64,000 bases of DNA from Flavobacteriales bacterium (GTDB taxonomy: Bacteria > Bacteroidota > Bacteroidia > Flavobacteriales_D > Parvicellaceae): contig JAQXDK010000044.1 in assembly GCA_029251405.1 (NCBI GenBank), forward strand, positions 5,118-69,117. Direction: 5' to 3'. A program made the translations under genes and the position numbers. Each line of letters opens with the position of its first letter. Positions within the stretch are counted from its first letter, which is position 1. Positions 5,229 to 20,250 of this stretch are shown here, piece by piece. Below the pieces are notes generated by a model. That model worked only from the letters and a program-made list of their open reading frames with translations. It had not been told where the DNA came from and searched no databases.

Positions 5229-5250
5229 TTAACGTTAAAATGACGTTAAA
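5229..5250. promoter_or_regulatory. Candidate operator in the divergent PUL promoter region
   Basis: Perfect 10-bp palindrome TTAACGTTAA (5229-5238). ACGTTAAA recurs 11 bp later (5243-5250, within TGACGTTAAA). These are the only CG-containing motifs in an otherwise A/T-only intergenic region. Confidence 0.3.
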
Positions 5251-5257
5251 AAAATTT

Positions 5258-5265
5258 TAAATTTG
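5258..5265 (+). promoter_or_regulatory. Bacteroidota -7 promoter box for susC
   Basis: TAAATTTG matches the TAnnTTTG consensus, 28 nt upstream of the ATG at 5293. It overlaps the alternative TTG start at 5263, which argues against that start. Confidence 0.45.
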
Positions 5266-5292
5266 GTTTGTTGTTATTTAATCCCAATTGAT

Positions 5293-8262
5293 ATGAATTT
5301 TAATTTATTTAAAAATATTTTTTTTATTACTTGTTTTTTATTCTCTTCTTTTACTTACAGTCAATTTTCTATTTCAGGAAAAATAGTAGATCAAGATGGT
5401 GAAGCTCTTGTAGGCGCAACGGTGTATGTTATGGAACTTAGTACAGGTTCTTCAACTGATATTGGGGGTAATTATCTGATTGCAAACATTGAAAAAGGAA
5501 ATTATTCAATTGTTTTTTCTGCGGTTGGCTACAAAAAAATAAAAGAAACTATTGCTATTAATTCAAACGTCATCAAAAATTTTACTTTATCAGAAGATGC
5601 TCTTTTATTAGATGAGGCAGTAGTAATTGGTTATGGAACAGCAAGGACTAAAGATTTAACTGGATCTGCTGCAATTATAAGAAGTGAAGACTTTAACAAA
5701 GGTTCTGTTACCACACCAGAACAATTAGTAATGGGGAAAGTTCCAGGAGTAAAAATTAATTCTAACAACGGAGCTCCAGGTTCAGGTAGTACTATAAGAA
5801 TTAGAGGAGGTACTTCAATAAATGCAAGTAATGATCCATTAATTGTGATCGATGGGGTTCCATTGGATAACGGAGGAATAGCAGGTTCTGCCAATCCATT
5901 AAACCTAATCAATCCAAATGATATTGAAACATTTGTTGTTTTAAAAGATGCTTCAGCAACTGCAATATATGGATCTAGAGGTGCAAATGGAGTAATTTTG
6001 ATAACTACTAAAAGGGGAAAAGGTGATGATATTAATGTCAGTTTTACAACAAATAACTCATTATCTTCAGTTGTCAAGTATACTGATGTATTAAGTGCTG
6101 CTGATTACAGTGATGTTGTTAATGAATTTGGTTCCCAAACTCAAATAGATAAACTGGGAGATTCCAGTACTAATTGGCAAGAAAAAATATATAGAATGGC
6201 TTACATTAATGAGAATAATGTTTCTGTTTCAGGAGGATTGAAAGGAGTTCCATTTAGATTTTCAGCAGGAAATAAACATGAAGAAGGTCTTCTTAAAAGG
6301 CACAAATTAGACAGGTATTCTACTTCTTTAAATTTGTCACCTAAATTTTTTAAAAATCAAATTGCTTTGGATGTGAATTCAAGATATGTAAGAACTGATA
6401 ATTTTTTTACTGATCAAAGTGCCATTTGGGCTGCTACTCAATTTGATCCAACTATGCCGGTCTACAGTGGCGATACTGCATATGGTGGATATTATGAAAC
6501 ACTTTTTACTGCAGGTGGGAACTCTGGAAAACCTGTTCCATTAGCTATTAGGAATCCACTAGGAATTGTAAATCAAAAAGAGGATGTTAGTGAGGTCAAT
6601 AGATTTATTGGTAATGCTAAAGTAACATATAGTCCAAATTCAATTCCTGAACTTAAAGCAGTTTTAAATGTTGGTACAGATATTGTTAACTCTAACGGAT
6701 CTGTTTCTATACCTGAATATGCAGCATCTAATTTTCAAAATGGGGGTTTTAAAACTCAATATGAAATGGAGAAATCCAATCAATTAATTGAAGGGTTTTT
6801 AAATTATTCTAACTCAGAAAAAGCCTTGAAACATAGATTGGATGTGACTGGTGGATATTCATTTCAAGAATGGTCTACTAAAAGTCCTTCTTATCCAGGG
6901 CTTAATATAGCAGGAGACACATTAAATGCACCAGGAATTCCTACAGAGACAAAAAATGCATTACTTTCCTTTTATTCAAGAGGTATTTATTCTTATGCTG
7001 ATAAATATATTGTTACAGCAACCATGAGAAGAGACGGTTCTTCAAGGTTTAGTCCTGAAAATAGATGGGGCTGGTTTCCATCTGTTTCTGCTGCTTGGAT
7101 TATTAGCGAAGAATCTTTTTTGAAAGATGCAGATTTCCTTACCTATTTTAAGGCAAGAGTAGGGTATGGTATCACGGGGCAACAAGATATTTTTTACGAT
7201 TACCCTTATATTGCTAACTACCAAGAAGGTTCTATAACTGCTCAATATCAGTTTGGTAATCAATTTGTAAGTACATTAAGACCTGATGGTTACGATTACA
7301 ATATAAAGTGGGAAACAACATCAAGCACGAATATTGGAATTGATTTCGGAATGTTGAATGATAAAATAAGTGGGTCTTTTGACTATTATTTAAAAGAAAC
7401 ATCAGATTTATTAGCAACTGTGCCAGTAGTTGCTGGAACCAACTTCACCAACTTCATTTTAACTAATGTTGGTAGCATGAAAAATGAGGGTATGGAAATA
7501 AATCTAAATTTAGGATTATTAAAAAATGCAACTACAAGTATAGATTTAGGTTTAAATGCAACCTACAATAAAAATACTGTGACTGGATTGTCATTAGTCC
7601 CCGACACCAGTTCTATAGGAATTCAAGTTGGCGGTATTTCTGGAGGAATTGGAAACACAGCGCAAATACACACAGTTGGGCACCCTACCTTTACATATTT
7701 TTTCTATGAATCAACTTATAACGCTGATGGTAGTCCAATAGAAGATCAATTTATTGATCAAAATAACGATAGTATTATCAATATTGATGATAGAGTAAGA
7801 TCAGGTAATCCAAATCCAAATTGGTTTTTAGGAGCTAATTTAAACGCATCTTATAAAAATTGGTTTCTAGGTACTTCTATGAGAGCTGAACTCGGTGCTT
7901 ATGTTTATAATAATTTAGCTTCAAATTATGGTAATTTACAAGCTGGAAATTCAACGTTTAACTCTTCAAATATTCATGCTAGTTTTTTAGAAACCAATTT
8001 TCAAGGAAATTCTAACGAGCAATTATTAAGTAATTACTTCCTTGAAAAAGCAAATTTTTTGAGAATGGATTATTTTACTTTTGGTTATAATTTTAAAAAT
8101 ATGTTGTCTGATAAGTTTAGTTTAAATGCGGCTTTTACAATAAATAATGTTTTTGTTTTAACTAAATATTCTGGAATGGATCCAGAGGTTGTTGGAGGTA
8201 TCGATAATAATATTTATCCAAGACCTAGAATTTATTCCTTAAACCTAACCTTTGACTTTTAA
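5293..8262 (+). CDS. susC: SusC/RagA-family TonB-dependent outer-membrane transporter
   Basis: Start moved to ATG 5293 (MNFNLFKNIFFITCFLFSSFTYSQ signal). N-terminal carboxypeptidase-regulatory-like domain (ISGKIVDQDGEALVGATVYV), plug motifs (VVIGYGT, DPLIVIDGVP, ATAIYGSRGANGVILITTKRG). About 990 aa, followed directly by a SusD-like gene. Confidence 0.9.
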   Translation: MNFNLFKNIFFITCFLFSSFTYSQFSISGKIVDQDGEALVGATVYVMELSTGSSTDIGGNYLIANIEKGNYSIVFSAVGYKKIKETIAINSNVIKNFTLSEDALLLDEAVVIGYGTARTKDLTGSAAIIRSEDFNKGSVTTPEQLVMGKVPGVKINSNNGAPGSGSTIRIRGGTSINASNDPLIVIDGVPLDNGGIAGSANPLNLINPNDIETFVVLKDASATAIYGSRGANGVILITTKRGKGDDINVSFTTNNSLSSVVKYTDVLSAADYSDVVNEFGSQTQIDKLGDSSTNWQEKIYRMAYINENNVSVSGGLKGVPFRFSAGNKHEEGLLKRHKLDRYSTSLNLSPKFFKNQIALDVNSRYVRTDNFFTDQSAIWAATQFDPTMPVYSGDTAYGGYYETLFTAGGNSGKPVPLAIRNPLGIVNQKEDVSEVNRFIGNAKVTYSPNSIPELKAVLNVGTDIVNSNGSVSIPEYAASNFQNGGFKTQYEMEKSNQLIEGFLNYSNSEKALKHRLDVTGGYSFQEWSTKSPSYPGLNIAGDTLNAPGIPTETKNALLSFYSRGIYSYADKYIVTATMRRDGSSRFSPENRWGWFPSVSAAWIISEESFLKDADFLTYFKARVGYGITGQQDIFYDYPYIANYQEGSITAQYQFGNQFVSTLRPDGYDYNIKWETTSSTNIGIDFGMLNDKISGSFDYYLKETSDLLATVPVVAGTNFTNFILTNVGSMKNEGMEINLNLGLLKNATTSIDLGLNATYNKNTVTGLSLVPDTSSIGIQVGGISGGIGNTAQIHTVGHPTFTYFFYESTYNADGSPIEDQFIDQNNDSIINIDDRVRSGNPNPNWFLGANLNASYKNWFLGTSMRAELGAYVYNNLASNYGNLQAGNSTFNSSNIHASFLETNFQGNSNEQLLSNYFLEKANFLRMDYFTFGYNFKNMLSDKFSLNAAFTINNVFVLTKYSGMDPEVVGGIDNNIYPRPRIYSLNLTFDF

Positions 8263-8272
8263 TTTAAATATT

Positions 8273-9892
8273 ATGAATTATTTTAAAAAAATAAACTACC
8301 TATTTTTAATTACTTCAACAGTAATGGTTTTTTCATGTTCTAAAAGACTTGATTTAGAACCGCCTATAGGACTTTCATCTGTAGATGTTTATAAAGATGC
8401 CAATAATTATGAAAAAGTGATTGCAAAATTATATGCTGGTATGTCTTTGTCTGGACTTCATGGCCCTTCAGGGAATCCTGATATTGCTGGAATTGATGAA
8501 GGTTTTTCACAGTACATAAGAGTTTTATGGAATTTACAAGAGCTTCCAACAGACCATGCAATTTGTAGATGGAACGATGTTGGAATTCCTGAAATGTGTA
8601 AAATGGAATGGAGTGCGGATAACTCTTTTGTAAAAGCCATGTATTCTAGAATATATTTTCAAATCCCTATTGCCAATGTTTTTATTAAAGAATCTACCGA
8701 TGAGAGTATGGATGAGAAAGGATTTAGTGAGGAACAACAATCAACAATAAGAATTTATAGAGCAGAAGCTAGATTTTTAAGAGCCTTGAGTTATTATCAT
8801 GCCATGGATTTATTTGGAAATGTTCCATTTGTTGATGAAACTACTCCAATTGGGGTTTTTTATCCTGAGCAAAAGATGAGACCAGAACTGTTCAATTGGA
8901 TAGAGTCTGAGCTGAAGGCAATAGAAAATAGTTTATTAGATGCCAACCAAATCCCTTATGGTAGAGCTAGTAAATCAGCTGCTCAGTCATTACTTGCAAA
9001 AATGTATTTGAACGCAGAAGTATATACTTCCAATTCAAAATGGTCTGAATGTATTGACTATTGCAATAAAGTTATAAACGATGGTGGATTTTCTTTAGAC
9101 GACAATTATTCAGAATTATTTATGGCAGATAACCATACTTCACCAGAAATTATTTTCCCAATTTGTTTTGACGGTCAATACACACAAACGTGGGGAGGAA
9201 CAACATTTTTAATATGTGCTGCACTAGGAAGTACTATGGATGCTAGTGATTACGGTATGAATAATGGTTGGAATGGTTTAAGAGCTACACCAACATTTGT
9301 CAATATTTTCACTGATTCAACTCTTGATACAAGATGGAAATTTCATACTTCTGGTGAAAAGGTAATTCTGGGAGATACTACTACTGTTTATCAAGATGTG
9401 AATATAGGTGAAGTGTTAACCAACTGCCCCGATACAAGTGGATACTTAGTAGGTAAGTTTAGTAATATTGATCAAATGGGAAACCCTGGGTCACATGTTT
9501 CTTTAACTCATTCCGATACCGATTTCCCCATGTTTAGATTAGCTGATATATATTTAATGTTAGCTGAGGCATCACTTAATAATGGTGATCAAGGAACTGC
9601 TTTAACTTACATGAATTTTTTAAGAGAAAGAGCATATGGGAATTCAAATTTTAATTTTTCCACTGTTAATTTAGAGGATGTATTAAATGAGAGAAGTAAA
9701 GAATTGTATTGGGAGTGCACGAGAAGAACAGACTTAATTAGACATAATAAGTACACAACTTCAGATTTATTATGGTCGTTTAAAGGGGGTGAAATTAATG
9801 GCATGGGTGTAGACGAGTACAGAAATATATATCCTCTTCCGACTTATGACATTGTAAACAATCCGAATTTAGAACAGAATCTTGGCTATTAA
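8273..9892 (+). CDS. susD: SusD/RagB-family nutrient-binding outer-membrane lipoprotein
   Basis: Start at ATG 8273 (MNYFKKINYLFLITSTVMVFSC lipobox). The position right after susC, its length, and TPR-like SusD signatures (RAEARFLRALSYYHAMDLFGNVPF, RLADIYLMLAEA, ERSKELYWECTRRTDLIR) support the call. Confidence 0.85.
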   Translation: MNYFKKINYLFLITSTVMVFSCSKRLDLEPPIGLSSVDVYKDANNYEKVIAKLYAGMSLSGLHGPSGNPDIAGIDEGFSQYIRVLWNLQELPTDHAICRWNDVGIPEMCKMEWSADNSFVKAMYSRIYFQIPIANVFIKESTDESMDEKGFSEEQQSTIRIYRAEARFLRALSYYHAMDLFGNVPFVDETTPIGVFYPEQKMRPELFNWIESELKAIENSLLDANQIPYGRASKSAAQSLLAKMYLNAEVYTSNSKWSECIDYCNKVINDGGFSLDDNYSELFMADNHTSPEIIFPICFDGQYTQTWGGTTFLICAALGSTMDASDYGMNNGWNGLRATPTFVNIFTDSTLDTRWKFHTSGEKVILGDTTTVYQDVNIGEVLTNCPDTSGYLVGKFSNIDQMGNPGSHVSLTHSDTDFPMFRLADIYLMLAEASLNNGDQGTALTYMNFLRERAYGNSNFNFSTVNLEDVLNERSKELYWECTRRTDLIRHNKYTTSDLLWSFKGGEINGMGVDEYRNIYPLPTYDIVNNPNLEQNLGY

Positions 9893-12191
9893 TCGAATAA
9901 TTTTATCTGTAAGTTTTTCTTTTTTAATTGTTTTTTCATTTTCACAAAATCTTAGTACTTCAAAACAAGTTACATTACAAGGATTTTGGTGGGATTATTT
10001 TAATTCCAATTACAGTTACAGACACGCAGACTACTTGGCAGATCTAGCTCCAAGATTGCGAGCAATTGGGATAGATGCTGTTTGGATTCCTCCATCTATT
10101 AAAAATAAACAGATTGTTGATATGGGTTATGCTCCCTTCGATCATTATGATTTAGGAGATAAATATCAAAAAGGATTTTTAAAAACCAAGTTAGGAGACA
10201 AAGACCAGCTTTTGAGGATGGTTGCTGTGATGAAAGCTAATGGTATAGATGTTATTCAGGATATTGTTTTAAACCATATAACTGGTGCAGGCAGTCAAAA
10301 TGGTTCTGGAGGTCAAGATCCACAAGCAATTGACGATGGTTCGAGTAATAAGTATAAAAACTTTAGGTATTCATGTTTTGAAACACCATCGACATTGGAA
10401 ACCTCTTCTAATTATTTGTCGCGCAAAGGAAGGTTTAGTAAGAACTGGCAAAATTTCTATCCTAATAATAATTATATATGTTGTTCCAACGAAATAAATT
10501 CTCCATACTGGGGTCCTGATATTTCTTACGAAGCGAACTCATATGGTCTAAGTTCAAATGCTATTCATAATCCCAATCAAAGCTCTGGGTATATGAGAAG
10601 TGAAATGAGAAATTGGTTGCTGTGGTACAAAAAACAAGTTGGCTTTTCAGGAGTTAGAATTGACGCCATAAAACATTTTCCAACGTATGTTGTAGAGGAT
10701 TTTTTGTGGAACTTACAAAATGGAAATGGTTGGGCAAACACATCAGACGATATGTTTGCAGTAGGAGAGTGGGTGGGGAATTCCACTGAACTCGACCAAT
10801 GGTGCAGCGACGTCCAAAACAGGGCAGGAACTTTTGATTTTTCATTAAGAAATGCGTTTACAGGTATAGTTCAAGGACTTGGGACTTTTGATTTAGGGAG
10901 TGTTCCTAATTATCAACAAGGTAACAGGCTTAGAACAGTTCCATTTGTAAATAATCACGATACTTTTAGACCAATTTTAGATGCTGACGGAAATTACATT
11001 AATTGGAATACTTCTCAGCAGCTTGGAGCTCAAATTGAACCAAACGATCCAAGATTAAGTTTGGTATATGCAATTTCTTTTGCTTTAGACGGGGCACCAA
11101 TGGTTTATTTTGAAGATCTATTTAATATAGGTTATAATGGTAATAGATACAATCATAACCCTAAAGATTCATTAGACTTACCAATGAGGTCGGATATCGT
11201 AAATATTATATGGTGTCATCAAAATTTAAACTTTAAAGATGGTTCATATTTAGTTAGATGGCAAGAGAATGACGCTCTTGTTGTTGAAAGAGATGCGAAA
11301 GCAATAATTGCTGTTAATGATAGTTGGGACAACTGGAAAACTTTAACAGGAGTTCAGACTAATTGGTTAGATGGCACTGTTCTAAAAGATTATTCGGGAG
11401 CCCATTTAAGTACAATTACAGTTTATGGAGGAGGAAAAATTGATTTTACAATTCCTCCATGTGATGGAACCGCACCAAATGGTAGAAAAGGTTATGCAAT
11501 TTGGGCACCTGACGGGATAACTTCAAATTATTCAAATCCATCGGAGACAATTACTCAAGAATGGGAAATGGCTGATGATTTAGGAGACAGTCATTTAGCG
11601 TCATTACAACAAGGAGGTAAATTACCAACTAATAGTTTAGAGTGTAGAGTGGTTGGAAAAGTACATACAAAGTCACAAAGCACCTTAAGTGTAGAGCTTT
11701 ATCCTTTGTTTAGCAACCTCTCCGTTGACATATTATTATTAGACAGGAATTGTGACATAATAGACTCTGTTTCAGGTATTGGAACCTTAAATCACGACTT
11801 TCTAATTTCTAATGAAGATATTTACACACTGAAAATAAGAAACACCACAGACTCTCAACTTGGTCAAAAATGTTGGGTGAAAGTCACTTATCAAGCGCCT
11901 GTAGTTCCTGATTTAACCATTCAAAAGAATATTTGTGGATGTTCTTCCATTAGTAACTTGGAGTCTGAAAACTTTGAAAACTACTTTGTTTATCCCAATC
12001 CAGTTTCAAATTTCATTTACTTAAAAAACCAAGAAAAGTTTATTAGTGAAAAATACATAATCTTTAATAATCAAGGTTTGGTTATTAAAAATGGAAATTT
12101 AAAAAATGGCTCTATTTATATAGGTGATTTGGATAACGGAGTCTATGTTCTTCAATATGAAAATGAAACTAAAAAATTTATTAAAAATTAA
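9882..12191 (+). CDS. Secreted GH13 alpha-amylase with T9SS C-terminal sorting domain
   Basis: GH13 regions DIVLNHITG, GVRIDAIKHF, VGEWVG, FVNNHDT. C-terminus VYPNPVSNFIYLKN...GVYVLQYENETKKFIKN is a T9SS CTD. The only start that keeps the signal peptide is TTG 9882, overlapping the susD stop by 11 nt. Confidence 0.85.
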   Translation: MAINRIILSVSFSFLIVFSFSQNLSTSKQVTLQGFWWDYFNSNYSYRHADYLADLAPRLRAIGIDAVWIPPSIKNKQIVDMGYAPFDHYDLGDKYQKGFLKTKLGDKDQLLRMVAVMKANGIDVIQDIVLNHITGAGSQNGSGGQDPQAIDDGSSNKYKNFRYSCFETPSTLETSSNYLSRKGRFSKNWQNFYPNNNYICCSNEINSPYWGPDISYEANSYGLSSNAIHNPNQSSGYMRSEMRNWLLWYKKQVGFSGVRIDAIKHFPTYVVEDFLWNLQNGNGWANTSDDMFAVGEWVGNSTELDQWCSDVQNRAGTFDFSLRNAFTGIVQGLGTFDLGSVPNYQQGNRLRTVPFVNNHDTFRPILDADGNYINWNTSQQLGAQIEPNDPRLSLVYAISFALDGAPMVYFEDLFNIGYNGNRYNHNPKDSLDLPMRSDIVNIIWCHQNLNFKDGSYLVRWQENDALVVERDAKAIIAVNDSWDNWKTLTGVQTNWLDGTVLKDYSGAHLSTITVYGGGKIDFTIPPCDGTAPNGRKGYAIWAPDGITSNYSNPSETITQEWEMADDLGDSHLASLQQGGKLPTNSLECRVVGKVHTKSQSTLSVELYPLFSNLSVDILLLDRNCDIIDSVSGIGTLNHDFLISNEDIYTLKIRNTTDSQLGQKCWVKVTYQAPVVPDLTIQKNICGCSSISNLESENFENYFVYPNPVSNFIYLKNQEKFISEKYIIFNNQGLVIKNGNLKNGSIYIGDLDNGVYVLQYENETKKFIKN

Positions 12192-12206: not shown

Positions 12207-14354
12207 ATGAAAAATTTAAATCAATTAATCATTCTAATTACGATTCCAGTAATATTTTTTTCAAGATGTTCTCAAAGTGAGTCTTTAAAACCAAAAGTTA
12301 TTCCATGTGAAAGTGATGTCACTCTTTACTATCCTTTAAACTATAATCAAGATGCACACACTCCATCTTTCGCAATCGTTAATGAACCCCGTAAATCATT
12401 AGATGAAATAGACTCTAATACAATAAAGGTTTCTTTTTCAAATATAGGTGACAGAGAAGTTGCTCAGGTTACAATAGGAGAAAATATCGATTTATATGGC
12501 ACTGGAGAAGTGTTGGGCGATTTGGTTAGAAATGGAACAAACTTAAAGCTATGGAACACAGATAATTACGCTTATGGAAAAGACAATGGGCAAAGATTGT
12601 ATCAATCTCACCCTTGGGTTTTGGGGTTAAGAGAAGATGGGAGCAGCTTTGGTGTTATTGCAGATAATACTTGGAAAATGGAAATTGCACTTGGAGAAAG
12701 AATTACGTTCTCTTCTGAGGGTCCTTCTTTTAGAGTATTAGTAATTGAAAAAGATTCTCCTCAAGAAGTTATGCGAGAATTAGCTAAGTTAACGGGTACA
12801 ATTGCACTTCCTCCATTATGGAGTTTAGGTTTTCACCAATGCAGATATTCCTATTATCCAGATGCAAGAGTTAAGTCTATTGCTGACACCATGCGATTGA
12901 AAAATATTCCATGTGATGTTATTTGGATGGACATAGACTATATGCAAGATTTTAGAATATTCACATTCGATTCCATTAATTTTCCCAATCCAAAAGAAAC
13001 TAATGACTATTTACATAAAAATGGTTTTAAATCTGTTTGGATGATAGATCCAGGAATAAAATCAGAAAGTGGTTATTCTGTATATGATTCAGGAGATTCA
13101 ATAAATGCATGGGTTAAAAATCAAAAAGACTCAGTATTTACAGGCAAAGTTTGGCCTGGTGACTGTGTTTTTCCAGATTTCACTCAAGATAAGGTATGTA
13201 ATTGGTGGGGGTCTTTGTATAAAGATTTTATGAGTGTTGGTATTGACGGTGTTTGGAACGATATGAACGAACCGGCTGTTTTTGAAACTTCAGATTGGAC
13301 AATGCCAAATAGTAATAAGCATAAAGGTGGAAAAACTAAGCCAAATGGCTCTCACCTTAGATATCATAATGTTTATGGAATGATGATGGTAGAAGCTTCG
13401 CGAAAAGGAATTATGCATGCTAATCCTGAAAAAAGACCTTTTGTTCTTACAAGATCAAACTTTCTTGGTGGTCATCGGTTTGCAGCAACATGGACTGGAG
13501 ATAATAACTCGAGTATGAAGCATTTAAAACAATCTATACCAATGAGCTTGAATTTAAGTTTATCAGGGCAACCCTTTAACGGTCCTGATATCGGTGGTTT
13601 TGCTGGAAATGCAACACCCGAACTATATGGACACTGGATTGCTGTTGGTGCATTTTATCCGTTTTCTAGGGCTCACGCAACAAAAGGTTCCATTAATCAA
13701 GAACCTTGGTCTTTTGGTAGTGAAATTGAACAGGTTTCTAGGGAGGCACTGCAAAGAAGGTACAGGTTGTTACCTTATTTCTATACTCTTTTTCAGGAAA
13801 GTTCTAAATCAGGTATGCCTGTGATGAGGCCTTTGTTTTTTCACAATTCTAAAGATTATAATCTAAGAAGAGAGCAGGGGAACTTTTTAATTGGTAGTGA
13901 TTTGCTTGTGATTCCTAAATGGAATGAAGGCGGAAATATGCCAAATGGAAATTGGAAAACTATTTCTATAAATGGAGAAAGTAGTGAAAACCATAAATAT
14001 CATCCCGATTTAAAAATTAGACCTGGCGCTATTCTTCCACTTTGTAATGCTATAGAGAATACCTCTGAATTTTCGTTAGATACCCTCACACTTTTAGTAT
14101 CGTTAGACACGACTTTGAAGGCAAAAGGTGTTTTATACACTGATGCTGGAGACGGATATGCTTATCAAAATGGTGATTTTTCATTGGTTGAATTTAATGC
14201 AGAACAAATAGGAAATAGTATTAATATATCTGTTACTTATAAAGAAGGACATCCTTTATCCGATAAAACATTTTTAAATATTCGAATTATAGATAATAAA
14301 AAGAGTACTACATCAGTATTTAATATTAATGATGATATTGTGATTCCTATTTAA
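12207..14354 (+). CDS. GH31 alpha-glucosidase
   Basis: GH31 signatures DVIWMDIDYM (nucleophile region), GVWNDMNEP, WTGDN. N-terminal signal/lipobox (FFSRCS). Confidence 0.9.
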   Translation: MKNLNQLIILITIPVIFFSRCSQSESLKPKVIPCESDVTLYYPLNYNQDAHTPSFAIVNEPRKSLDEIDSNTIKVSFSNIGDREVAQVTIGENIDLYGTGEVLGDLVRNGTNLKLWNTDNYAYGKDNGQRLYQSHPWVLGLREDGSSFGVIADNTWKMEIALGERITFSSEGPSFRVLVIEKDSPQEVMRELAKLTGTIALPPLWSLGFHQCRYSYYPDARVKSIADTMRLKNIPCDVIWMDIDYMQDFRIFTFDSINFPNPKETNDYLHKNGFKSVWMIDPGIKSESGYSVYDSGDSINAWVKNQKDSVFTGKVWPGDCVFPDFTQDKVCNWWGSLYKDFMSVGIDGVWNDMNEPAVFETSDWTMPNSNKHKGGKTKPNGSHLRYHNVYGMMMVEASRKGIMHANPEKRPFVLTRSNFLGGHRFAATWTGDNNSSMKHLKQSIPMSLNLSLSGQPFNGPDIGGFAGNATPELYGHWIAVGAFYPFSRAHATKGSINQEPWSFGSEIEQVSREALQRRYRLLPYFYTLFQESSKSGMPVMRPLFFHNSKDYNLRREQGNFLIGSDLLVIPKWNEGGNMPNGNWKTISINGESSENHKYHPDLKIRPGAILPLCNAIENTSEFSLDTLTLLVSLDTTLKAKGVLYTDAGDGYAYQNGDFSLVEFNAEQIGNSINISVTYKEGHPLSDKTFLNIRIIDNKKSTTSVFNINDDIVIPI

Positions 14355-14394
14355 CCTTTAAATACTTGTAATACAGCAGTATAGATCTACTATT

Positions 14395-14427
14395 CGTCAT
14401 GTTGACGTTTAATATTTTGTAAATTTG
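14395..14427 (+). promoter_or_regulatory. Promoter region of the ED operon: inverted repeat plus -7 box
   Basis: Inverted repeat CGTCA-TGT-TGACG (14395-14407). TGACGTT (14403-14409) lies exactly 17 nt upstream of the -7 box TAAATTTG (14420-14427), the same arrangement as upstream of susC. Confidence 0.4.
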
Positions 14428-14437
14428 ACCTAAATAG

Positions 14438-14467
14438 TAAGTGTATATTAAACAATAAGTGTATATT
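14438..14467 (+). repeat. Direct repeat TAAGTGTATATT x2 in the zwf leader
   Basis: Identical 12-mers at 14438-14449 and 14456-14467 (18-bp period), between the predicted -7 box and the zwf ATG at 14475. Confidence 0.6.
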
Positions 14468-14474
14468 TGTTTAA

Positions 14475-15941
14475 ATGATAAGTGAAAAAAGTATAGCATC
14501 ATTAAAGAATTTTGATCTAATTATATTCGGTGCGAACGGAGACTTAGCCTACAGAAAAATATTTCCAGCGTTATATCATAGGCTCGAGGAAGGACAAGTT
14601 AAGCCTAAAAGCAGAATAGCTGCAATGCTTCGTAATACAAAAAACAACCAAGAATATTTATCAACACTTACAAAGTCACTCAGAAAACAAATAAAAGGAA
14701 TTGATGAAAAAATACTTGCTACTCTTATTGGTAAAGTTGACGTAATAAGTGCCTTAACTATTAATGGGAAATACGCTGATTTGGAATCTTGGTTGAAAAA
14801 ATCTCCTAATAAAGTTCGTGTTTATTATTTAGCTACACCTTCATCAGTTTTTGGTCAAATTGCCAAGGATTTGCAAGATACTTCATTAATTACAGATGAA
14901 TCTAGAATAGTTTTAGAAAAACCACTTGGAAAAGATGGTGCTTCTTCTGCTTTAATTAATAATTCAATTTTAAAATATTTTGACGAAAAACAGATTTATA
15001 GAATTGATCACTACTTAGGTAAAGAGACTGTACAAAATCTTATGGTCTTAAGATTCGCTAATTATATTTTTGAAAACCTTTGGAATGCCAATCATATTGA
15101 AAATGTTCAAATTACAGCTGCTGAAAAATTAGGTATAGAAAAAAGAGGCGAATATTATGATAACTATGGAGCTCTCCTAGACATGGTTCAAAATCATTTA
15201 TTACAATTACTTTGTCTAATAGCTATGGAGCCACCTTCTGTTTTAACAGCTTCTCAAGTTAGAGTAGAAAAATTAAAAGTTTTAAATGCACTAGAAAAAT
15301 TCAACGAAGATTCAATAACTACCCGCACTTCAAAAGGTCAATATTCAAGAGGTGAAAAAAATGGAAAAATTATGCCTTCTTACTTAGAAGATGTTGGTAC
15401 GTATTCTTCTGAAACAGAAACTTATGTTGCTATAAAAACTTATATCAATAATTGGAGATGGAAAGGGGTTCCGTTTTATATTAGAACTGGTAAAAGGATG
15501 ACTGAGAAATTTTCTGAAATTGTTATTACTTTTAAAGATGTCCCACACAATATTTTCCCAGAAAAAAAGCTTATGGTTCCCAATAAACTAATCATTAGAC
15601 TTCAACCCAAGGAGAAAATTGAGTTTATTCAAATGGTAAAAGTCCCTGGTCCTGGTGGTTATCGATATAAACCTCTTTCAATGAAGATGGATTATTTAGA
15701 ATCATTTACTGGAAAATTCCCTGAAGCCTATGAACGTTTATTAATGGATGTTGTAAGAGGAAATCAGACACTTTTCATGAGCAACAAAGAGTTGAAAGCA
15801 TCTTGGGAATGGATTGCTTCAATTACAGAAAATTGGAAATCCAGTAGTATTAAAAATAATCTTTACAACGCTGGCACTGATGGCCCTGGAGATAGCATAC
15901 TGGAATCTAATCACAACTGGCATAAAACAAGTAATAAATGA
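14475..15941 (+). CDS. zwf: Glucose-6-phosphate 1-dehydrogenase
   Basis: N-terminal Rossmann FGANGDLAYRKIFPAL, the signature RIDHYLGKETVQN, and length about 490 aa. Confidence 0.95.
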   Translation: MISEKSIASLKNFDLIIFGANGDLAYRKIFPALYHRLEEGQVKPKSRIAAMLRNTKNNQEYLSTLTKSLRKQIKGIDEKILATLIGKVDVISALTINGKYADLESWLKKSPNKVRVYYLATPSSVFGQIAKDLQDTSLITDESRIVLEKPLGKDGASSALINNSILKYFDEKQIYRIDHYLGKETVQNLMVLRFANYIFENLWNANHIENVQITAAEKLGIEKRGEYYDNYGALLDMVQNHLLQLLCLIAMEPPSVLTASQVRVEKLKVLNALEKFNEDSITTRTSKGQYSRGEKNGKIMPSYLEDVGTYSSETETYVAIKTYINNWRWKGVPFYIRTGKRMTEKFSEIVITFKDVPHNIFPEKKLMVPNKLIIRLQPKEKIEFIQMVKVPGPGGYRYKPLSMKMDYLESFTGKFPEAYERLLMDVVRGNQTLFMSNKELKASWEWIASITENWKSSSIKNNLYNAGTDGPGDSILESNHNWHKTSNK

Positions 15942-16618
15942 TTTGGAAAGATTTTAAAACTGCTGATTCTTTGGAAAAAGAATTACTTAATTCTATAGAA
16001 ACAAACATTAGAATTTCATTAAAAGAAAATAATGAAGCTTTAATACTTCTTTCTGGGGGTTCAACTCCCTTGTCACTTTACAAAAAGTTTAAAGAAATAA
16101 AAAAAATTGACTGGTCAAAAATTAAGTTTGGATTAGTTGATGAGAGGTGGGTTAATAACAGTTCAAAGGATAGTAATTTTTATAATATTTCAGAAGCTCT
16201 TGGTGGGCAAATCATCGAAAAAAGTACTTTCATTCCTTTGGTTTATGATGAACTGAATGAGAAAAAAAATATTTCTCAAGCTAAAAAAGCAAACATTGAG
16301 TTTTTAGGAAAAAAAACAATTGTCATTTTAGGAATGGGAACAGATGGTCATACAGCATCATTATTTCCTGATAACTCTAAGACTGAAATTGCAATTTCCC
16401 AATTGACTCCTAACATCCTAGACAATATAGCACCTGTATCACCAAAAAATAGAATAACACATAACCTGAAATCAATTTTTAATTCTAAAAAAGTGATTCT
16501 CTATATAAAGGGACAAGAAAAAAAGAATGTTCTTGAAAAATCTAAAATTGATTTACTTCCTATTAGTTATGTTATTAATACACTTTCTACTCAAGTTGAA
16601 ACTTTCTGGACAAAGTAA
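15938..16618 (+). CDS. pgl: 6-phosphogluconolactonase
   Basis: LSGGSTP and GMGTDGHTASLFP motifs of the SOL/DevB family. ATGA overlap with zwf. Confidence 0.85.
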   Translation: MIWKDFKTADSLEKELLNSIETNIRISLKENNEALILLSGGSTPLSLYKKFKEIKKIDWSKIKFGLVDERWVNNSSKDSNFYNISEALGGQIIEKSTFIPLVYDELNEKKNISQAKKANIEFLGKKTIVILGMGTDGHTASLFPDNSKTEIAISQLTPNILDNIAPVSPKNRITHNLKSIFNSKKVILYIKGQEKKNVLEKSKIDLLPISYVINTLSTQVETFWTK

Positions 16619-18421
16619 ATGAATAAATCAATTTTAAATATAACCAACAGAATAATCGAGAAAAGTAAAGCTTCTAGAAATAATTACTTATTTCAAATGA
16701 ACGAGGCTTTGAACGATTCTGTTAATAGATCCTCACTTTCTTGTGGAAACCTTGCACATGCTTTTGCCGGATGTGATTTGCATGATAAAGATTCTTTAAA
16801 AGGAGACGCTAAAGTAAATATAGGAATCGTAAGCTCCTACAACGACATGCTTTCAGCTCATAAAACTTATGAGACTTACCCCGATTTAATTAGAGACCAA
16901 GCTTCCAAAATCGGTGCTGTTGCTCAAGTTGCTGCCTGTGTTCCTGCAATGTGTGATGGAGTAACTCAAGGTCAAAAAGGAATGGAGCTTTCCTTAATTA
17001 GTAGAGATGTTATAGCTATGTCAACTGCCATTGGAATGTCTCATAATATGTTTGATGCTGGATTATGTCTTGGTATTTGTGATAAAATTGTCCCTGGATT
17101 ATTAATTGGAGCTTTGAAATTTGGTCATTTACCTTTTGCTTTTGTTCCTGGAGGACCTATGCCTTCTGGGATTTCTAATGTTGAAAAAAACAGAATAAGA
17201 CAAGAATATGCAAAAGGTAATATTTCTAAAAAAGAACTTTTAGATGGCGAATCGGCTTCTTATCATTCTGCAGGAACTTGCACTTTTTATGGAACAGCAA
17301 ATAGCAATCAGATGTTAATGGAAATCATGGGTCTCCATCTTCCTGGTTCTTCCTTTGTTGCTCCAAATACTTCTTTGAGAGAAGCTTTGACCTTAGAATC
17401 TGTAAGACAAGTTAAAAACAATGCTACAAGTAAGTCAGGATTATTAAAAGACGTAATTAACGAAAAATCTATTGTCAATGGTATTGTAGGTTTATTAGCC
17501 ACTGGTGGATCTACTAATTTAACTTTACATATTATTGCAATTGCTGCTGCAGCAGGAATCAAAATTGATTGGCAAGATTTTTCTGATTTATCGGACACTG
17601 TACCTTTACTTACTAGAGTTTATCCTAACGGAAGCAGCGATGTTAATGATTTCCATAATGCGGGAGGAATGACTGTTTTAATAAACGAATTATTAAATGG
17701 TGGCTTTTTAAATGAAGATGTTGAAACTTTGGTTGGAAAAGGATTAAAAGAATACACTAAATTCCCAACCTTTGAAAATAATCAATTTAAATTCCAAGAT
17801 AAAGAATTAAAGTCTGGAAATGACGACATTATTGCTACTCATAGTAAGCCATTCAGTCATAATGGTGGAATTAAAGTTTTAAAAGGAAATTTAGGTACAT
17901 CAGTAATAAAAACATCAGCAGTTGAAGAAGCTAACTGGTATGTGAAAGCTGAAGCAATCGTCATTCAGGAACAAAATCAATTGACTGAACTTTTCCAATC
18001 AGGAAATCTTAATAAAGATTTTGTTTTGGTAGTCTCCAACCAAGGTCCTAAATCAAATGGGATGCCAGAGCTTCACCAGTTGACTCCCATATTATCAATC
18101 CTCCAACATCAAGGTCATAAAGTAGCACTTGTAACAGATGGAAGAATGTCTGGTGCTTCTGGGAAAATACCTGCTGCAATACACTTGTCTCCAGAAGCTG
18201 TAGATAAAGGTCCAATCTCTAAAATCTTAGATGGTGACATTATAGAATTAGATCCAAAAAATTCAAGTTTAAATATTTTAGTGAACGAGGAAAAACTTCT
18301 AAAAAGAAAATCAATAATAGTATCTAGAAAAAAATTCGGTATGGGAACTGAACTATTTTCTATGGTAAGACCCTTAATGTCTTCTAGTAAAGAAGGAGCA
18401 TCTTTTTTAAATTATGAATAA
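16619..18421 (+). CDS. edd: Phosphogluconate dehydratase (Entner-Doudoroff)
   Basis: Collinear similarity to remembered E. coli Edd over the full length: VTNRIIE.S, LSCGNLAHAFA, PAMCDGVTQGQ.GMELSL, CDKIVPGL, GTCTFYGTANSNQM, ATGGSTN, GPK.NGMPELH, LVTDGR.SGASGK.P.AIH. Confidence 0.95.
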   Translation: MNKSILNITNRIIEKSKASRNNYLFQMNEALNDSVNRSSLSCGNLAHAFAGCDLHDKDSLKGDAKVNIGIVSSYNDMLSAHKTYETYPDLIRDQASKIGAVAQVAACVPAMCDGVTQGQKGMELSLISRDVIAMSTAIGMSHNMFDAGLCLGICDKIVPGLLIGALKFGHLPFAFVPGGPMPSGISNVEKNRIRQEYAKGNISKKELLDGESASYHSAGTCTFYGTANSNQMLMEIMGLHLPGSSFVAPNTSLREALTLESVRQVKNNATSKSGLLKDVINEKSIVNGIVGLLATGGSTNLTLHIIAIAAAAGIKIDWQDFSDLSDTVPLLTRVYPNGSSDVNDFHNAGGMTVLINELLNGGFLNEDVETLVGKGLKEYTKFPTFENNQFKFQDKELKSGNDDIIATHSKPFSHNGGIKVLKGNLGTSVIKTSAVEEANWYVKAEAIVIQEQNQLTELFQSGNLNKDFVLVVSNQGPKSNGMPELHQLTPILSILQHQGHKVALVTDGRMSGASGKIPAAIHLSPEAVDKGPISKILDGDIIELDPKNSSLNILVNEEKLLKRKSIIVSRKKFGMGTELFSMVRPLMSSSKEGASFLNYE

Positions 18422-18986
18422 TCAAAATAACATAAGATCAGTTTTAAATAATCATAAGATTATACCTGTGGTAACTTTCACCAACAAAGAAGATATTCAG
18501 CCGATCGTAGAAAGTTTACTCGATCAACAGATTAAATGTATAGAAGTTACCCTAAGGAATTCCATAAGTAGAGATGCGGTTGAGGTGATAAAGAATATTT
18601 ATGGGGATAAAATTGCAGTTGGAGTAGGAACAGTTCTTAATAAATCTGATGTTTTATTTTCCCAAGAGAATAATGTAGATTTTATGGTAAGTCCTGGTGC
18701 TACCAAAAACCTTATAAACGAATTTGAAAATTCTAAAATTCCATATTTACCAGGTGTATCAACTGTCAATAATGTTATGGAATTATTAGAAATGGATTGT
18801 AATACTTTGAAGTTCTTTCCTGCACTATTAAGTGGTGGAGTAAATATGTTGAAACAATTCAATAATTTATTTAAGGATGTAAAGTTTTGTCCAACAGGAG
18901 GAATTAACGAATTTAACTATAACGAATTTTTATCACTACCTAATGTAGTTAGTGTTGGAGGTTCTTGGGTTATAAAAAATAAATAA
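18414..18986 (+). CDS. eda: KDPG / KHG aldolase
   Basis: IPVV...IEVTLR, VGVGTV, Schiff-base Lys region LKFFPA, FCPTGGI, GGSW. About 20 aa shorter at the C-terminus than E. coli Eda. 8-nt overlap with edd. Confidence 0.85.
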   Translation: MNNQNNIRSVLNNHKIIPVVTFTNKEDIQPIVESLLDQQIKCIEVTLRNSISRDAVEVIKNIYGDKIAVGVGTVLNKSDVLFSQENNVDFMVSPGATKNLINEFENSKIPYLPGVSTVNNVMELLEMDCNTLKFFPALLSGGVNMLKQFNNLFKDVKFCPTGGINEFNYNEFLSLPNVVSVGGSWVIKNK

Positions 18987-18990
18987 AAAT

Positions 18991-19845
18991 ATGATTTTAA
19001 TTGCAGAAAGTGGTTCAACAAAAACTGATTGGGTTCTTGTAAATGATCAGAATAAAATTACAATTTTCAAGACAATGGGATTCAATCCCTTCTTTCATTC
19101 CAGTAAATTTATTGCAGAAAAAATTCAAGAAAATCAAGAGTTTTATCAAGCATCAAAAAATGTAGACAAATTATATTTTTATGGTGCAGGTTGTTCTAGT
19201 TTAGAGATGAATAATATTGTTAAATCAGGTTTGAAATCTATTTTCCCAAATACTGAAATTTCTGTTGATCATGATTTACTTGCTTGTGCTTTATCCACTT
19301 ATCAAGGAGAACCCGCTATATCCTGTATATTAGGAACCGGTTCTAATTCTTGTTATTATGATGGTCAGACTCTAAGAGAAGAGGTTCCTGCAATTGCCTA
19401 TGTACTTGGAGATGAGGGATCAGGCTCTTTTTATGGTAAGAAATTACTTAGAGATTATCTTTACAATCAATTACCAGAAAGCATAAAGGTAGATTTTGAA
19501 GATCAATTTGGTTCCGCTAAATCTGAAATTTTTGAAAGCGTATATATGAAACCACATGCTAATGTATATTTAGCTTCTTTCATGAAGTTTTTAAATAGAC
19601 ATTATCACCACGAATATGTAATAGAAATGATTCAAAATGGAATGAATGAATTCATCAAAATTCATGTTTGTTGTTACCCAGAATATAAATCAGTTAAAAC
19701 TCATTTTATAGGATCTATCAGTAAAATATTTGAAAGAGAATTAATAGATGCTGCAGCTAATCATGGTGTTATTTTAGGTGGTATTATTCAGAAGCCAGTA
19801 GATAATTTAGTAAATTATCATCTAAATTATATTGAGGCTTCTTAA
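18991..19845 (+). CDS. BadF/BadG/BcrA/BcrD-type ATPase, N-acetylglucosamine-kinase-like sugar kinase (candidate glucokinase)
   Basis: N-terminal MILIAESGSTKTDW phosphate-1 motif, then GAGCSS and LGTGSNS motifs of the ASKHA kinase fold. Starts 5 nt after eda on the same strand. Confidence 0.7.
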   Translation: MILIAESGSTKTDWVLVNDQNKITIFKTMGFNPFFHSSKFIAEKIQENQEFYQASKNVDKLYFYGAGCSSLEMNNIVKSGLKSIFPNTEISVDHDLLACALSTYQGEPAISCILGTGSNSCYYDGQTLREEVPAIAYVLGDEGSGSFYGKKLLRDYLYNQLPESIKVDFEDQFGSAKSEIFESVYMKPHANVYLASFMKFLNRHYHHEYVIEMIQNGMNEFIKIHVCCYPEYKSVKTHFIGSISKIFERELIDAAANHGVILGGIIQKPVDNLVNYHLNYIEAS

Positions 19846-19897: not shown

Positions 19898-20250
19898 ATG
19901 AATTGGTTTAGCTTTAGTTTAAAAACATCCTCCTTGTTTATTTTACTTACTTGTAGTTCTTAATGATATTAATGGTGGAAATTTAAATCTATCTTGTTTG
20001 ATAATTCTAAAACAATTATAGAAAGAGATGTAAATGGATTATTTTTTCATGTACCTTATAAAAATGGAATTGTTTTAAAAAGACTACATTCTGCTGTCCT
20101 AAAATGAGATTTTAAATTTGTGAAATTTCAAGATAATGGCGAGCTATTTCTTTACAATATAGCTACTGATAAAGAAGAAAAAAGAGAACCTTGAATTTAA
20201 AAATTCAATGAAAATAAATGAGTTGGAGATGATATTAATGAAATATTTAT
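19898..20250 (+). pseudogene. Decayed sulfatase-like gene relic (signal peptide plus C-terminal fragment only)
   Basis: ATG 19898 encodes MNWFSFSLKTSSLFILLTCSS followed by a stop (lipoprotein-type signal). A downstream frame reads ...LHSAVLK*DFKFVKFQDNGELFLYNIATDKEEKREP*. After a 1-nt shift in the A-run it continues RNLEFKNSMKINELEMILMKYL*, resembling the conserved sulfatase C-terminus (..W.F.....ELYN...D..E..NL). Its stop overlaps the next gene's ATG (ATGA at 20247-20250). Confidence 0.5.

Follow-up and report, generated by a model that had tools for sequence, protein, structure and literature searches.

Is the set of Entner-Doudoroff (ED) genes that stands directly 3' of a starch locus in a marine member of the Flavobacteriales an imported block, or an inherited route for the sugar that the locus would release? 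The question arises from a window of 64,000 nucleotides (nt) on contig JAQXDK010000044.1 (assembly GCA_029251405.1) of a Flavobacteriales bacterium, called G000 below; "the window" always means this whole stretch. In it, zwf, pgl, edd and eda are followed by the gene for a sugar kinase, and all five lie beside a polysaccharide utilization locus (PUL) for alpha-glucan. The classical ED route is often regarded as proteobacterial, and an initial annotation of the window had described the block as an operon appended to the PUL.

We consider it probable that the block is a canonical ED cassette with a candidate glucokinase that is linked to the PUL, has been inherited vertically and is now being lost from the genus. 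The G000 assembly (2.23 Mb, 97% complete) was compared first of all with its own genus, g1, which is represented by 13 sampled species including G000.

An intact gene set for the Entner-Doudoroff route

Genes were taken from a six-frame list of open reading frames (ORFs) in the window, and families were assigned from NCBIfam and Pfam scores. The five genes stand exactly where they had been annotated (Table 1), and the family scores confirm that a complete ED set adjoins the alpha-glucan PUL. The close packing described earlier also holds, with a 4-nt overlap of zwf and pgl (ATGA), a 0-nt gap between pgl and edd and an 8-nt overlap of edd and eda, except that the kinase gene follows the clean stop of eda after 4 nt, not 5. 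As had been noted, the block is co-oriented with the GH31 (glycoside hydrolase family 31) gene of the PUL and begins 120 nt downstream of it. Each of the five genes is present in a single copy in G000. By these scores and junctions, the region is predicted to encode an intact, canonical ED gene set, Zwf-Pgl-Edd-Eda.

Table 1. Features of the ED block and its surroundings. Coordinates are positions in the window except in the last row, which refers to a related genome.
Feature	Coordinates	Strand	Basis
zwf, glucose-6-phosphate dehydrogenase	14475..15941	+	TIGR00871, 518 bits (cut-off 401)
pgl, 6-phosphogluconolactonase	15938..16618	+	TIGR01198, 144 bits (cut-off 124)
edd, 6-phosphogluconate dehydratase	16619..18421	+	TIGR01196, 882 bits (cut-off 708)
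eda, 2-keto-3-deoxy-6-phosphogluconate (KDPG) aldolase, short form, 190 amino acids (aa)	18414..18986	+	TIGR01182, 186 bits (cut-off 156)
MurK/BadF-family ASKHA sugar kinase, candidate glucokinase, 284 aa	18991..19845	+	PF01869, 21.9 bits (under gathering score 31.5)
ED-block putative promoter: inverted repeat CGTCA-TGT-TGACG overlapping TGACGTT, 10 nt, TAAATTTG	14395..14427	+	inferred
5' leader with tandem TAAGTGTATATT motif	14438..14467	+	cross-genome conservation
susC promoter-like box: TGACGTT, 10 nt, Bacteroidetes-type -7 box TAAATTTG	5241..5265	+	sequence read
SusC-type TonB-dependent transporter	5263..8262	+	TIGR04056, 702 bits
SusD-type starch-binding lipoprotein	8252..9892	+	NF033071 (SusD), 402 bits, under that model's exception cut-off; Pfam SusD_RagB
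GH13 alpha-amylase with type IX secretion system (T9SS) C-terminal sorting domain	9882..12191	+	alpha-amylase models and TIGR04183
GH31 alpha-glucosidase with lipoprotein-type signal peptide (…FFSRC)	12207..14354	+	PF01055, 404 bits
G024: GH65 maltose phosphorylase, beta-phosphoglucomutase (beta-PGM)-like haloacid dehalogenase (HAD), major facilitator superfamily (MFS) transporter, GH13	L111 6822-12414		between PUL and ED block

The dehydratase can be told apart from IlvD, as all IlvD models of NCBIfam score far under their cut-offs. A tblastn search with Edd found no second gene of the IlvD/Edd family in G000. Dihydroxy-acid dehydratase thus appears to be absent from this genome, which may mean that the organism is auxotrophic for branched-chain amino acids.

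A supply of 6-phosphogluconate is predicted, since Zwf and Pgl both exceed their NCBIfam cut-offs. It had been pointed out that the window contains no gnd and that gnd and pfk should be sought in the rest of the genome. The absence of gnd (PF00393) extends to the genome and to the genus, with no match in any of the 13 genomes and matches to controls in 9 of 14 reference genomes. The block is therefore not a zwf-pgl-gnd cluster of the oxidative pentose-phosphate pathway, as 6-phosphogluconate dehydrogenase is missing. Because gnd is absent and the enzymes have no paralogs, Zwf and Pgl could not serve the oxidative branch and would feed only Edd and Eda; without Gnd, 6-phosphogluconate would have no other known fate in G000. 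PfkA (PF00365), by comparison, scores over its cut-off in 9 of the 13 genus genomes, G000 among them, so that the ED route would run parallel to glycolysis and would not be the sole route.

The aldolase is short, but not unusually so. In nearly all Bacteroidota ED clusters examined, Eda ends 0-6 residues past the GGSW motif at about 190 aa, and the C-terminal helix of 21-28 residues seen in most sampled proteobacterial Eda proteins is not found in the short Bacteroidota form. The common length, the clean stop and the gap before the kinase gene rule out both a frameshift truncation of Eda and its fusion with the kinase. Its EVTLR and KFFP catalytic motifs, with the general-base glutamate and the Schiff-base lysine, align to those of the KDPG aldolases 6ovi and 1mxs.

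The GH31 family includes sulfoquinovosidases, and dehydratases of the Edd/IlvD family act in sulfo-ED pathways. With these family precedents, and with sulfatase relics nearby, the locus could be read as a sulfo-ED pathway for sulfoquinovose in which the GH31 enzyme is a sulfoquinovosidase. However, Zwf, Pgl and Edd pass the equivalog cut-offs of the canonical, phosphorylated pathway. The best NCBIfam match of the GH31 protein is MalA alpha-glucosidase, at 375 bits, compared with 93 bits for the YihQ-type model, and GH13 amylases and a SusD of the starch type are encoded in the locus. Given these family scores, we rule out the sulfo-ED reading, whose chance of being correct is negligible.

Vertical inheritance of the cassette

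Among the 13 genus genomes, zwf (PF02781, G6PD_C) and edd occur in G000 alone, and G000 is the only one of these species that still has the pathway. Such a pattern could be produced by a recent horizontal gain, in which zwf-(pgl)-edd-eda reached G000 from a foreign lineage and came to lie between the GH31 and kinase genes of an ancestral PUL that had no ED genes. The absence of zwf and edd from all 12 congeners would fit this history. So would the pgl gene of G000, which is only 53-58% identical to pgl of the congeners compared with 70-88% for flanking genes, and the Edd protein, which resembles some Alphaproteobacteria (56-61%) as much as it resembles many Flavobacteriales. We nevertheless regard a recent gain as very unlikely, for reasons that lie in the site itself, in the trees and in base composition.

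The most direct evidence comes from the congener G008. Its GH31 and kinase genes are separated by a spacer of 514 bp (L104 9716-10230), which is syntenic to window positions 14355-18990, and its kinase is 88% identical to that of G000. The spacer carries remnants of both ends of the cassette: from zwf, codons 1-50 at 68% identity (E 1e-17), and from eda, codons 135-188, the last 54, at 72% (E 6e-25). We read this spacer as the scar of an internal deletion of about 4.1 kb, which implies that the block was at this site before G000 and G008 split. In six other congeners the order is SusC-SusD-GH13-GH31-pgl-kinase, with kinases 81-84% identical to that of G000 and pgl in the 53-58% range given above; here the leader that precedes zwf in G000 runs directly into pgl, and zwf and edd-eda are missing. 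The congeners therefore do not present a clean empty site, as G008 retains remnants of zwf and eda and the others retain pgl with the leader.

The low identity of pgl can be accounted for in the same way. In the Pgl tree, the g1 sequences are monophyletic (98/96), and long branches are seen in the copies that stand without partner genes, so that the low identity reflects fast evolution of orphan copies. The Pgl tree and the G008 remnants together rule out that a foreign cassette displaced an ancestral pgl.

Outside the genus, the order zwf-pgl-edd-eda-kinase recurs in genera g13 (G024, G048 and G049), g5 (G058) and g9 (G020), where identity to G000 is 68-76% for zwf, 65-73% for edd and 58-68% for the kinase. 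In G024 the ED block is again part of an alpha-glucan locus and stands between two sets of genes, the first for SusC (82%), SusD (82%) and GH13 (70%), the second a divergently oriented maltose unit, GH13-MFS-beta-PGM-like HAD-GH65. ED and alpha-glucan genes were therefore linked before g1 and g13 split, and the shared arrangement indicates that cassette and kinase already stood beside alpha-glucan genes in the ancestor that these two genera share.

The Edd tree, with 79 rows, was compared with an RpoB tree of the same genomes. All Bacteroidota Edd proteins form one clade (support 98) that is separate from Pseudomonadota, and G000 falls inside (g9,(g1,g5,g13)) with support of 100 and 99. The RpoB tree is ((g9,g11),(g5,(g13,g1))), with all nodes starred, and within g1 it places (G000,G008) as sister to the remaining congeners. 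Identity to G000 ranks alike in the two proteins, at 73% for g13, 72% for g5 and 65-67% for g9 in Edd, and 92%, 91% and 87.5% in RpoB. For g1, g13, g5 and g9, therefore, the Edd and Pgl trees agree with RpoB and there is no gene-tree conflict. The block does not deviate in base composition: its GC content is 30-32%, like that of the window around it. Its promoter and leader are conserved with g13.

The single Bacteroidota Edd clade and a local topology equal to that of RpoB rule out transfer from Proteobacteria. Within the subclade formed by g9, g5, g13 and g1, gene order and trees alike argue for vertical inheritance of the cassette. In view of the trees and the deletion remnants in G008, the description of the block as a novel or horizontally acquired appendage is not supported. 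Its annotation should name an ED route that was inherited and is supplied by an alpha-glucan PUL, and should not call the cluster an import.

Two observations on individual sequences were made in the course of this comparison. Three loci labelled as Sphingomonadales or Chitinophaga (L022, L018 and L080) have Edd sequences deep inside the Flavobacteriales clade and are likely to be mislabelled bins, not transfers. G008 carries two nearly identical copies of rpoB, on contigs C91 and C86, which are probably a product of assembly redundancy.

Stepwise loss within the genus

Taken together, the sites in the congeners indicate at least two independent losses within g1, both by deletion. In this genus, the loss of a pathway by steps among streamlined marine Flavobacteriales can be followed cleanly and could be dated, as the full cassette, pgl and kinase only, and a scar can be seen side by side.

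The orphan pgl genes are intact and lie between the GH31 and kinase genes in the six congeners (L106 10830-11504 in G009; also in L105 and L107-L110), whose genomes contain no zwf, edd or gnd. They are under purifying selection, with dN/dS of 0.14-0.21 versus 0.05-0.12 for the kinase, and evolve about twice as fast as their neighbors. Orphan Pgl proteins score 95 and 76 bits against TIGR01198, short of its cut-off of 124.

Since the pathway has been lost in 12 of the 13 species of the genus, and since the sulfatase genes next to the kinase have already been deleted in G000, the block might be a decaying, nonfunctional relic in G000 as well. Such decay is very unlikely, given five ORFs that are intact and tightly coupled, ED enzymes that exceed curated cut-offs, an Eda with its catalytic motifs and a G000 pgl branch that is shorter than the branches of the orphan copies.

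A candidate glucokinase of the MurK/BadF family

The fifth gene of the block had been proposed to encode a glucokinase outside the ROK family that feeds the pathway. Its product shows no sign of belonging to ROK or Glk, as its one Pfam match, to PF01869, is weak. Full-length relatives are present in the PDB, namely, 1zxo, 1zbs, MurK and K1058, with E values of 1e-50 to 1e-57 (1.4e-51 for MurK, 8oqw; 1e-56 for 1zxo). With these relatives it shares the catalytic aspartate and the motifs NPFF and GDEGSG, and in congeners the protein is kept at 81-88% identity. The source names of near-identical homologs suggest marine Crocinitomicaceae.

The proposal is plausible: no match above cut-off to ROK (PF00480) or to Glk (PF02685) occurs in the 13 genus genomes. 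The kinase is the only hexokinase candidate found in G000, in a search that covered ROK and Glk and was not directed at eukaryote-type hexokinase, ADP-glucokinase or a phosphotransferase system (PTS). What cannot be kept is the assignment of the kinase to the ED block alone, as congeners without ED genes retain it at the tail of the PUL. Across the Flavobacteriales, linkage of the kinase to ED genes is seen in at least four separate Edd clades and takes two forms: the kinase gene precedes zwf, or it follows eda (directly, or at a distance of a few kilobases in the Salibacteraceae group).

The residues around the sugar site were compared with those of MurK, whose specificity for N-acetylmuramic acid (MurNAc) has been attributed to a small T94 together with S133-P134-L135, with no polar side chain at T94 (PMC10465942). 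In hexokinases, an asparagine at the T94 site, or a histidine in the broad-specificity enzyme of Sulfolobus tokodaii, binds a sugar hydroxyl, and such a side chain would collide with the lactyl ether of MurNAc (PMC10465942). In our alignment, all ED- or PUL-linked kinases have His-Asp at the T94 site and serine at the I69 position; the T94 site is threonine in MurK, serine in K1058 and 1zxo, and glycine in 1zbs. The G000 kinase has P-A-I in place of S133-P134-L135, where distant ED-linked copies have S-H-G; in families f6 and f14 the distant ED-linked kinases, whose genes precede zwf, have an extra histidine in the 133-136 region. With histidine at the T94 site in every ED- or PUL-linked homolog, the residue pattern of a MurNAc kinase is not found.

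Glucose phosphorylation accounts best for four features taken together: ROK and Glk are absent, the His-Asp motif is present, the kinase stays behind at the end of the PUL when the ED genes are lost, and it is found beside ED genes repeatedly, in either of two orders. The protein is likely to be a glucokinase. A competing explanation is that it phosphorylates an amino sugar, namely, N-acetylglucosamine (GlcNAc) or glucosamine (GlcN), or MurNAc, and merely stands beside the ED genes, while glucose is phosphorylated by another, undetected enzyme. The nearest characterized relatives, MurK and K1058, are indeed MurNAc kinases (PMC10465942), and close homologs are named "N-acetylglucosamine kinase-like BadF-type ATPase" or "glucosamine kinase" by their sources.

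Two findings from our own analysis also favor an amino sugar and count against glucose. The kinase retains the hydrophobic N-acetyl pocket of MurK, with NPFF and with tyrosine at the F137 position. In G009, the kinase gene overlaps the first of two intact sulfatase genes by 17 nt (L106 12539-15581), a translational coupling that would suit an amino-sugar role too, as both products are N-sulfoglucosamine-sulfohydrolase-like. Because of the pocket and this overlap, GlcNAc/GlcN or broad specificity is conceivable for the enzyme. A relic of one of these sulfatases lies 3' of the kinase in G000, at 19982-20250, and matches the second sulfatase of G009 over residues 363-451 (75% identity, E 1e-31).

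We still judge an amino-sugar or MurNAc kinase to be unlikely, although less so than a recent gain of the cassette. The kinase is tied to zwf-pgl-edd-eda in several divergent Flavobacteriales lineages with two gene orders, it has no paralog in a genus that lacks ROK and Glk matches, and the invariant histidine at the T94 position of the ED-linked kinases is predicted to exclude MurNAc (PMC10465942). A MurNAc kinase role is also not needed, because AnmK (30% identical to the E. coli protein; C11:21463-22488) and MurQ (50%; C52:108472-109281) are encoded elsewhere in G000 and AnmK would already feed MurQ. The histidine and the presence of AnmK thus make it improbable that the kinase supplies MurQ with phosphorylated MurNAc. 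For GlcNAc, a tblastn search with E. coli NagA found no homolog in G000.

Glucose phosphorylation therefore remains our preferred assignment. We give about even chances to a broader proposal: that the His-Asp variant of the MurK/BadF family serves as glucokinase, or as a hexokinase of broad range, in Flavobacteriales without ROK and Glk, and that it was recruited repeatedly beside ED genes and alpha-glucan PULs. Orphan Pgl, for its part, may have taken on a new, nonlactonase role beside that kinase in the six congeners. The kinase is the most useful lead from this locus: no hexokinase candidate other than this ASKHA subfamily is visible in these genomes. It shares subfamily and full-length similarity with MurK and K1058 of T. 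forsythia, with the uncharacterized homologs 1zxo of B. thetaiotaomicron and 1zbs of P. gingivalis, and differs from MurK at the three positions described above, with histidine for T94, serine for I69 and P-A-I for S133-P134-L135. Its genomic context of starch and ED genes also differs from that in T. forsythia, which consists of murT/murQ genes (PMC5790795).

The alpha-glucan locus and its promoters

The PUL is recognized by a SusC/SusD pair that adjoins GH13 and GH31 carbohydrate-active enzymes. Farther upstream of the SusC gene are two more GH13 genes and a gene for a small T9SS protein, which brings the number of GH13 genes in the locus to three. From the family assignments, alpha-glucan would be converted to glucose by GH13 amylases exported through the T9SS together with the GH31 lipoprotein. 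Imported glucose would be phosphorylated to glucose-6-phosphate by the kinase, Zwf and Pgl would carry it on to 6-phosphogluconate, and Edd and Eda would yield pyruvate and glyceraldehyde-3-phosphate.

The cassette has a putative Bacteroidetes-type promoter of its own. A TGACGTT-N10-TAAATTTG box at 14403-14427, before zwf, matches the box before susC. The composite TGACGTT-N(9-11)-TAnnTTTG has only four copies in the 2.23-Mb genome. The occurrence of the identical box at both sites suggests that susC and the cassette are co-regulated and that the cassette does not depend on simple read-through. The susC-upstream box is also present in the congeners G009, G003 and G006, and zwf of G024 is preceded by a similar inverted repeat, CGTCA-TTA-TGACG. 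Scans of sigma-70 promoters and terminators gave nothing beyond what shuffled sequence gives.

Between this promoter and zwf is a leader whose tandem TAAGTGTAT motif is conserved over g1 and g13. Nucleotide identity of the leader is 83-90% before zwf in G000, G008 and G024, and it is found also before the orphan pgl in six congeners. The tandem motif is likely to be a regulatory element.

Apart from the points already raised for the kinase, several observations weigh against our overall reading. The comparative sample has one genome per species, and most are metagenome-assembled genomes (MAGs), and the Edd, RpoB and Pgl trees were built with a quick search. In the deeper part of the Edd tree, family f1 is nonmonophyletic, with g2 and g8 grouping with f14 and f9; owing to this grouping with other families, old transfers within the order are conceivable. 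The operator-like palindrome alone is not enriched genome-wide (three sites versus two to eight in shuffles). Moreover, no inner-membrane sugar transporter was found in the G000 locus, and G000 has no homolog of the GH65 or MFS protein of G024.

Distribution and comparison with known systems

The initial annotation had called edd uncommon in Bacteroidota, and only 1 of 400 other genomes in a phylum-wide draw contains it. In Flavobacteriales, edd was found in 88 of 401 species (22%) and 22 of 101 genera, with a concentration in one large family. The composition of the phylum and order draws is not shown, and we use the counts qualitatively, as 1 of 400 for the phylum and 22% for the order would be difficult to square with each other if the phylum draw contained more than a few Flavobacteriales. 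On this qualitative basis, edd is rare beyond Flavobacteriales and patchy but moderately common within the order. That edd might prove common and vertically inherited in the family had been named as the outcome that would speak against horizontal acquisition. This is largely what we see: in the family, 14 of 61 species, from 7 of 14 genera, have edd, and the Bacteroidota Edd proteins form a single clade. With the ED route in about one fifth of the sampled Flavobacteriales species, the finding is relevant to carbon-flux models of bloom-associated bacteria.

Muricauda strains without edd have been reported (PMC10301316). Our literature search found no account of such an ED-PUL arrangement, nothing on ED in Crocinitomicaceae and nothing on a BadF-type glucokinase in Bacteroidetes, and searches of broader topics gave incidental mentions only.

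The locus resembles the starch (Sus-like) PULs of Bacteroidota in its SusC/SusD pair with GH13 and GH31 enzymes. Its enzymes, however, are T9SS cargo and not SusE/F/G-type lipoproteins, no regulator gene is visible in the G000 locus, and the ED and kinase cassette stands immediately 3', under a look-alike promoter. The PUL of the related G024 holds GH65, a beta-PGM-like HAD and an MFS transporter in addition.

Among ED operons, those of Alphaproteobacteria (Devosia, Rhizobium, Agrobacterium and Mesorhizobium loci) have the identical zwf-pgl-edd order and an Edd that is 54-61% identical. Here, in contrast, eda also lies within the block, the block is attached to a SusC/SusD PUL, and Eda lacks the C-terminal helix of proteobacterial Eda. 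Zymomonas mobilis has the operon glf-zwf-edd-glk, which likewise includes a sugar kinase among ED genes, but the kinase of G000 belongs to the MurK/BadF family and not to Glk. One sampled genome, G042, carries two almost identical ED clusters, on contigs C5 and C9, which are probably the result of assembly redundancy.

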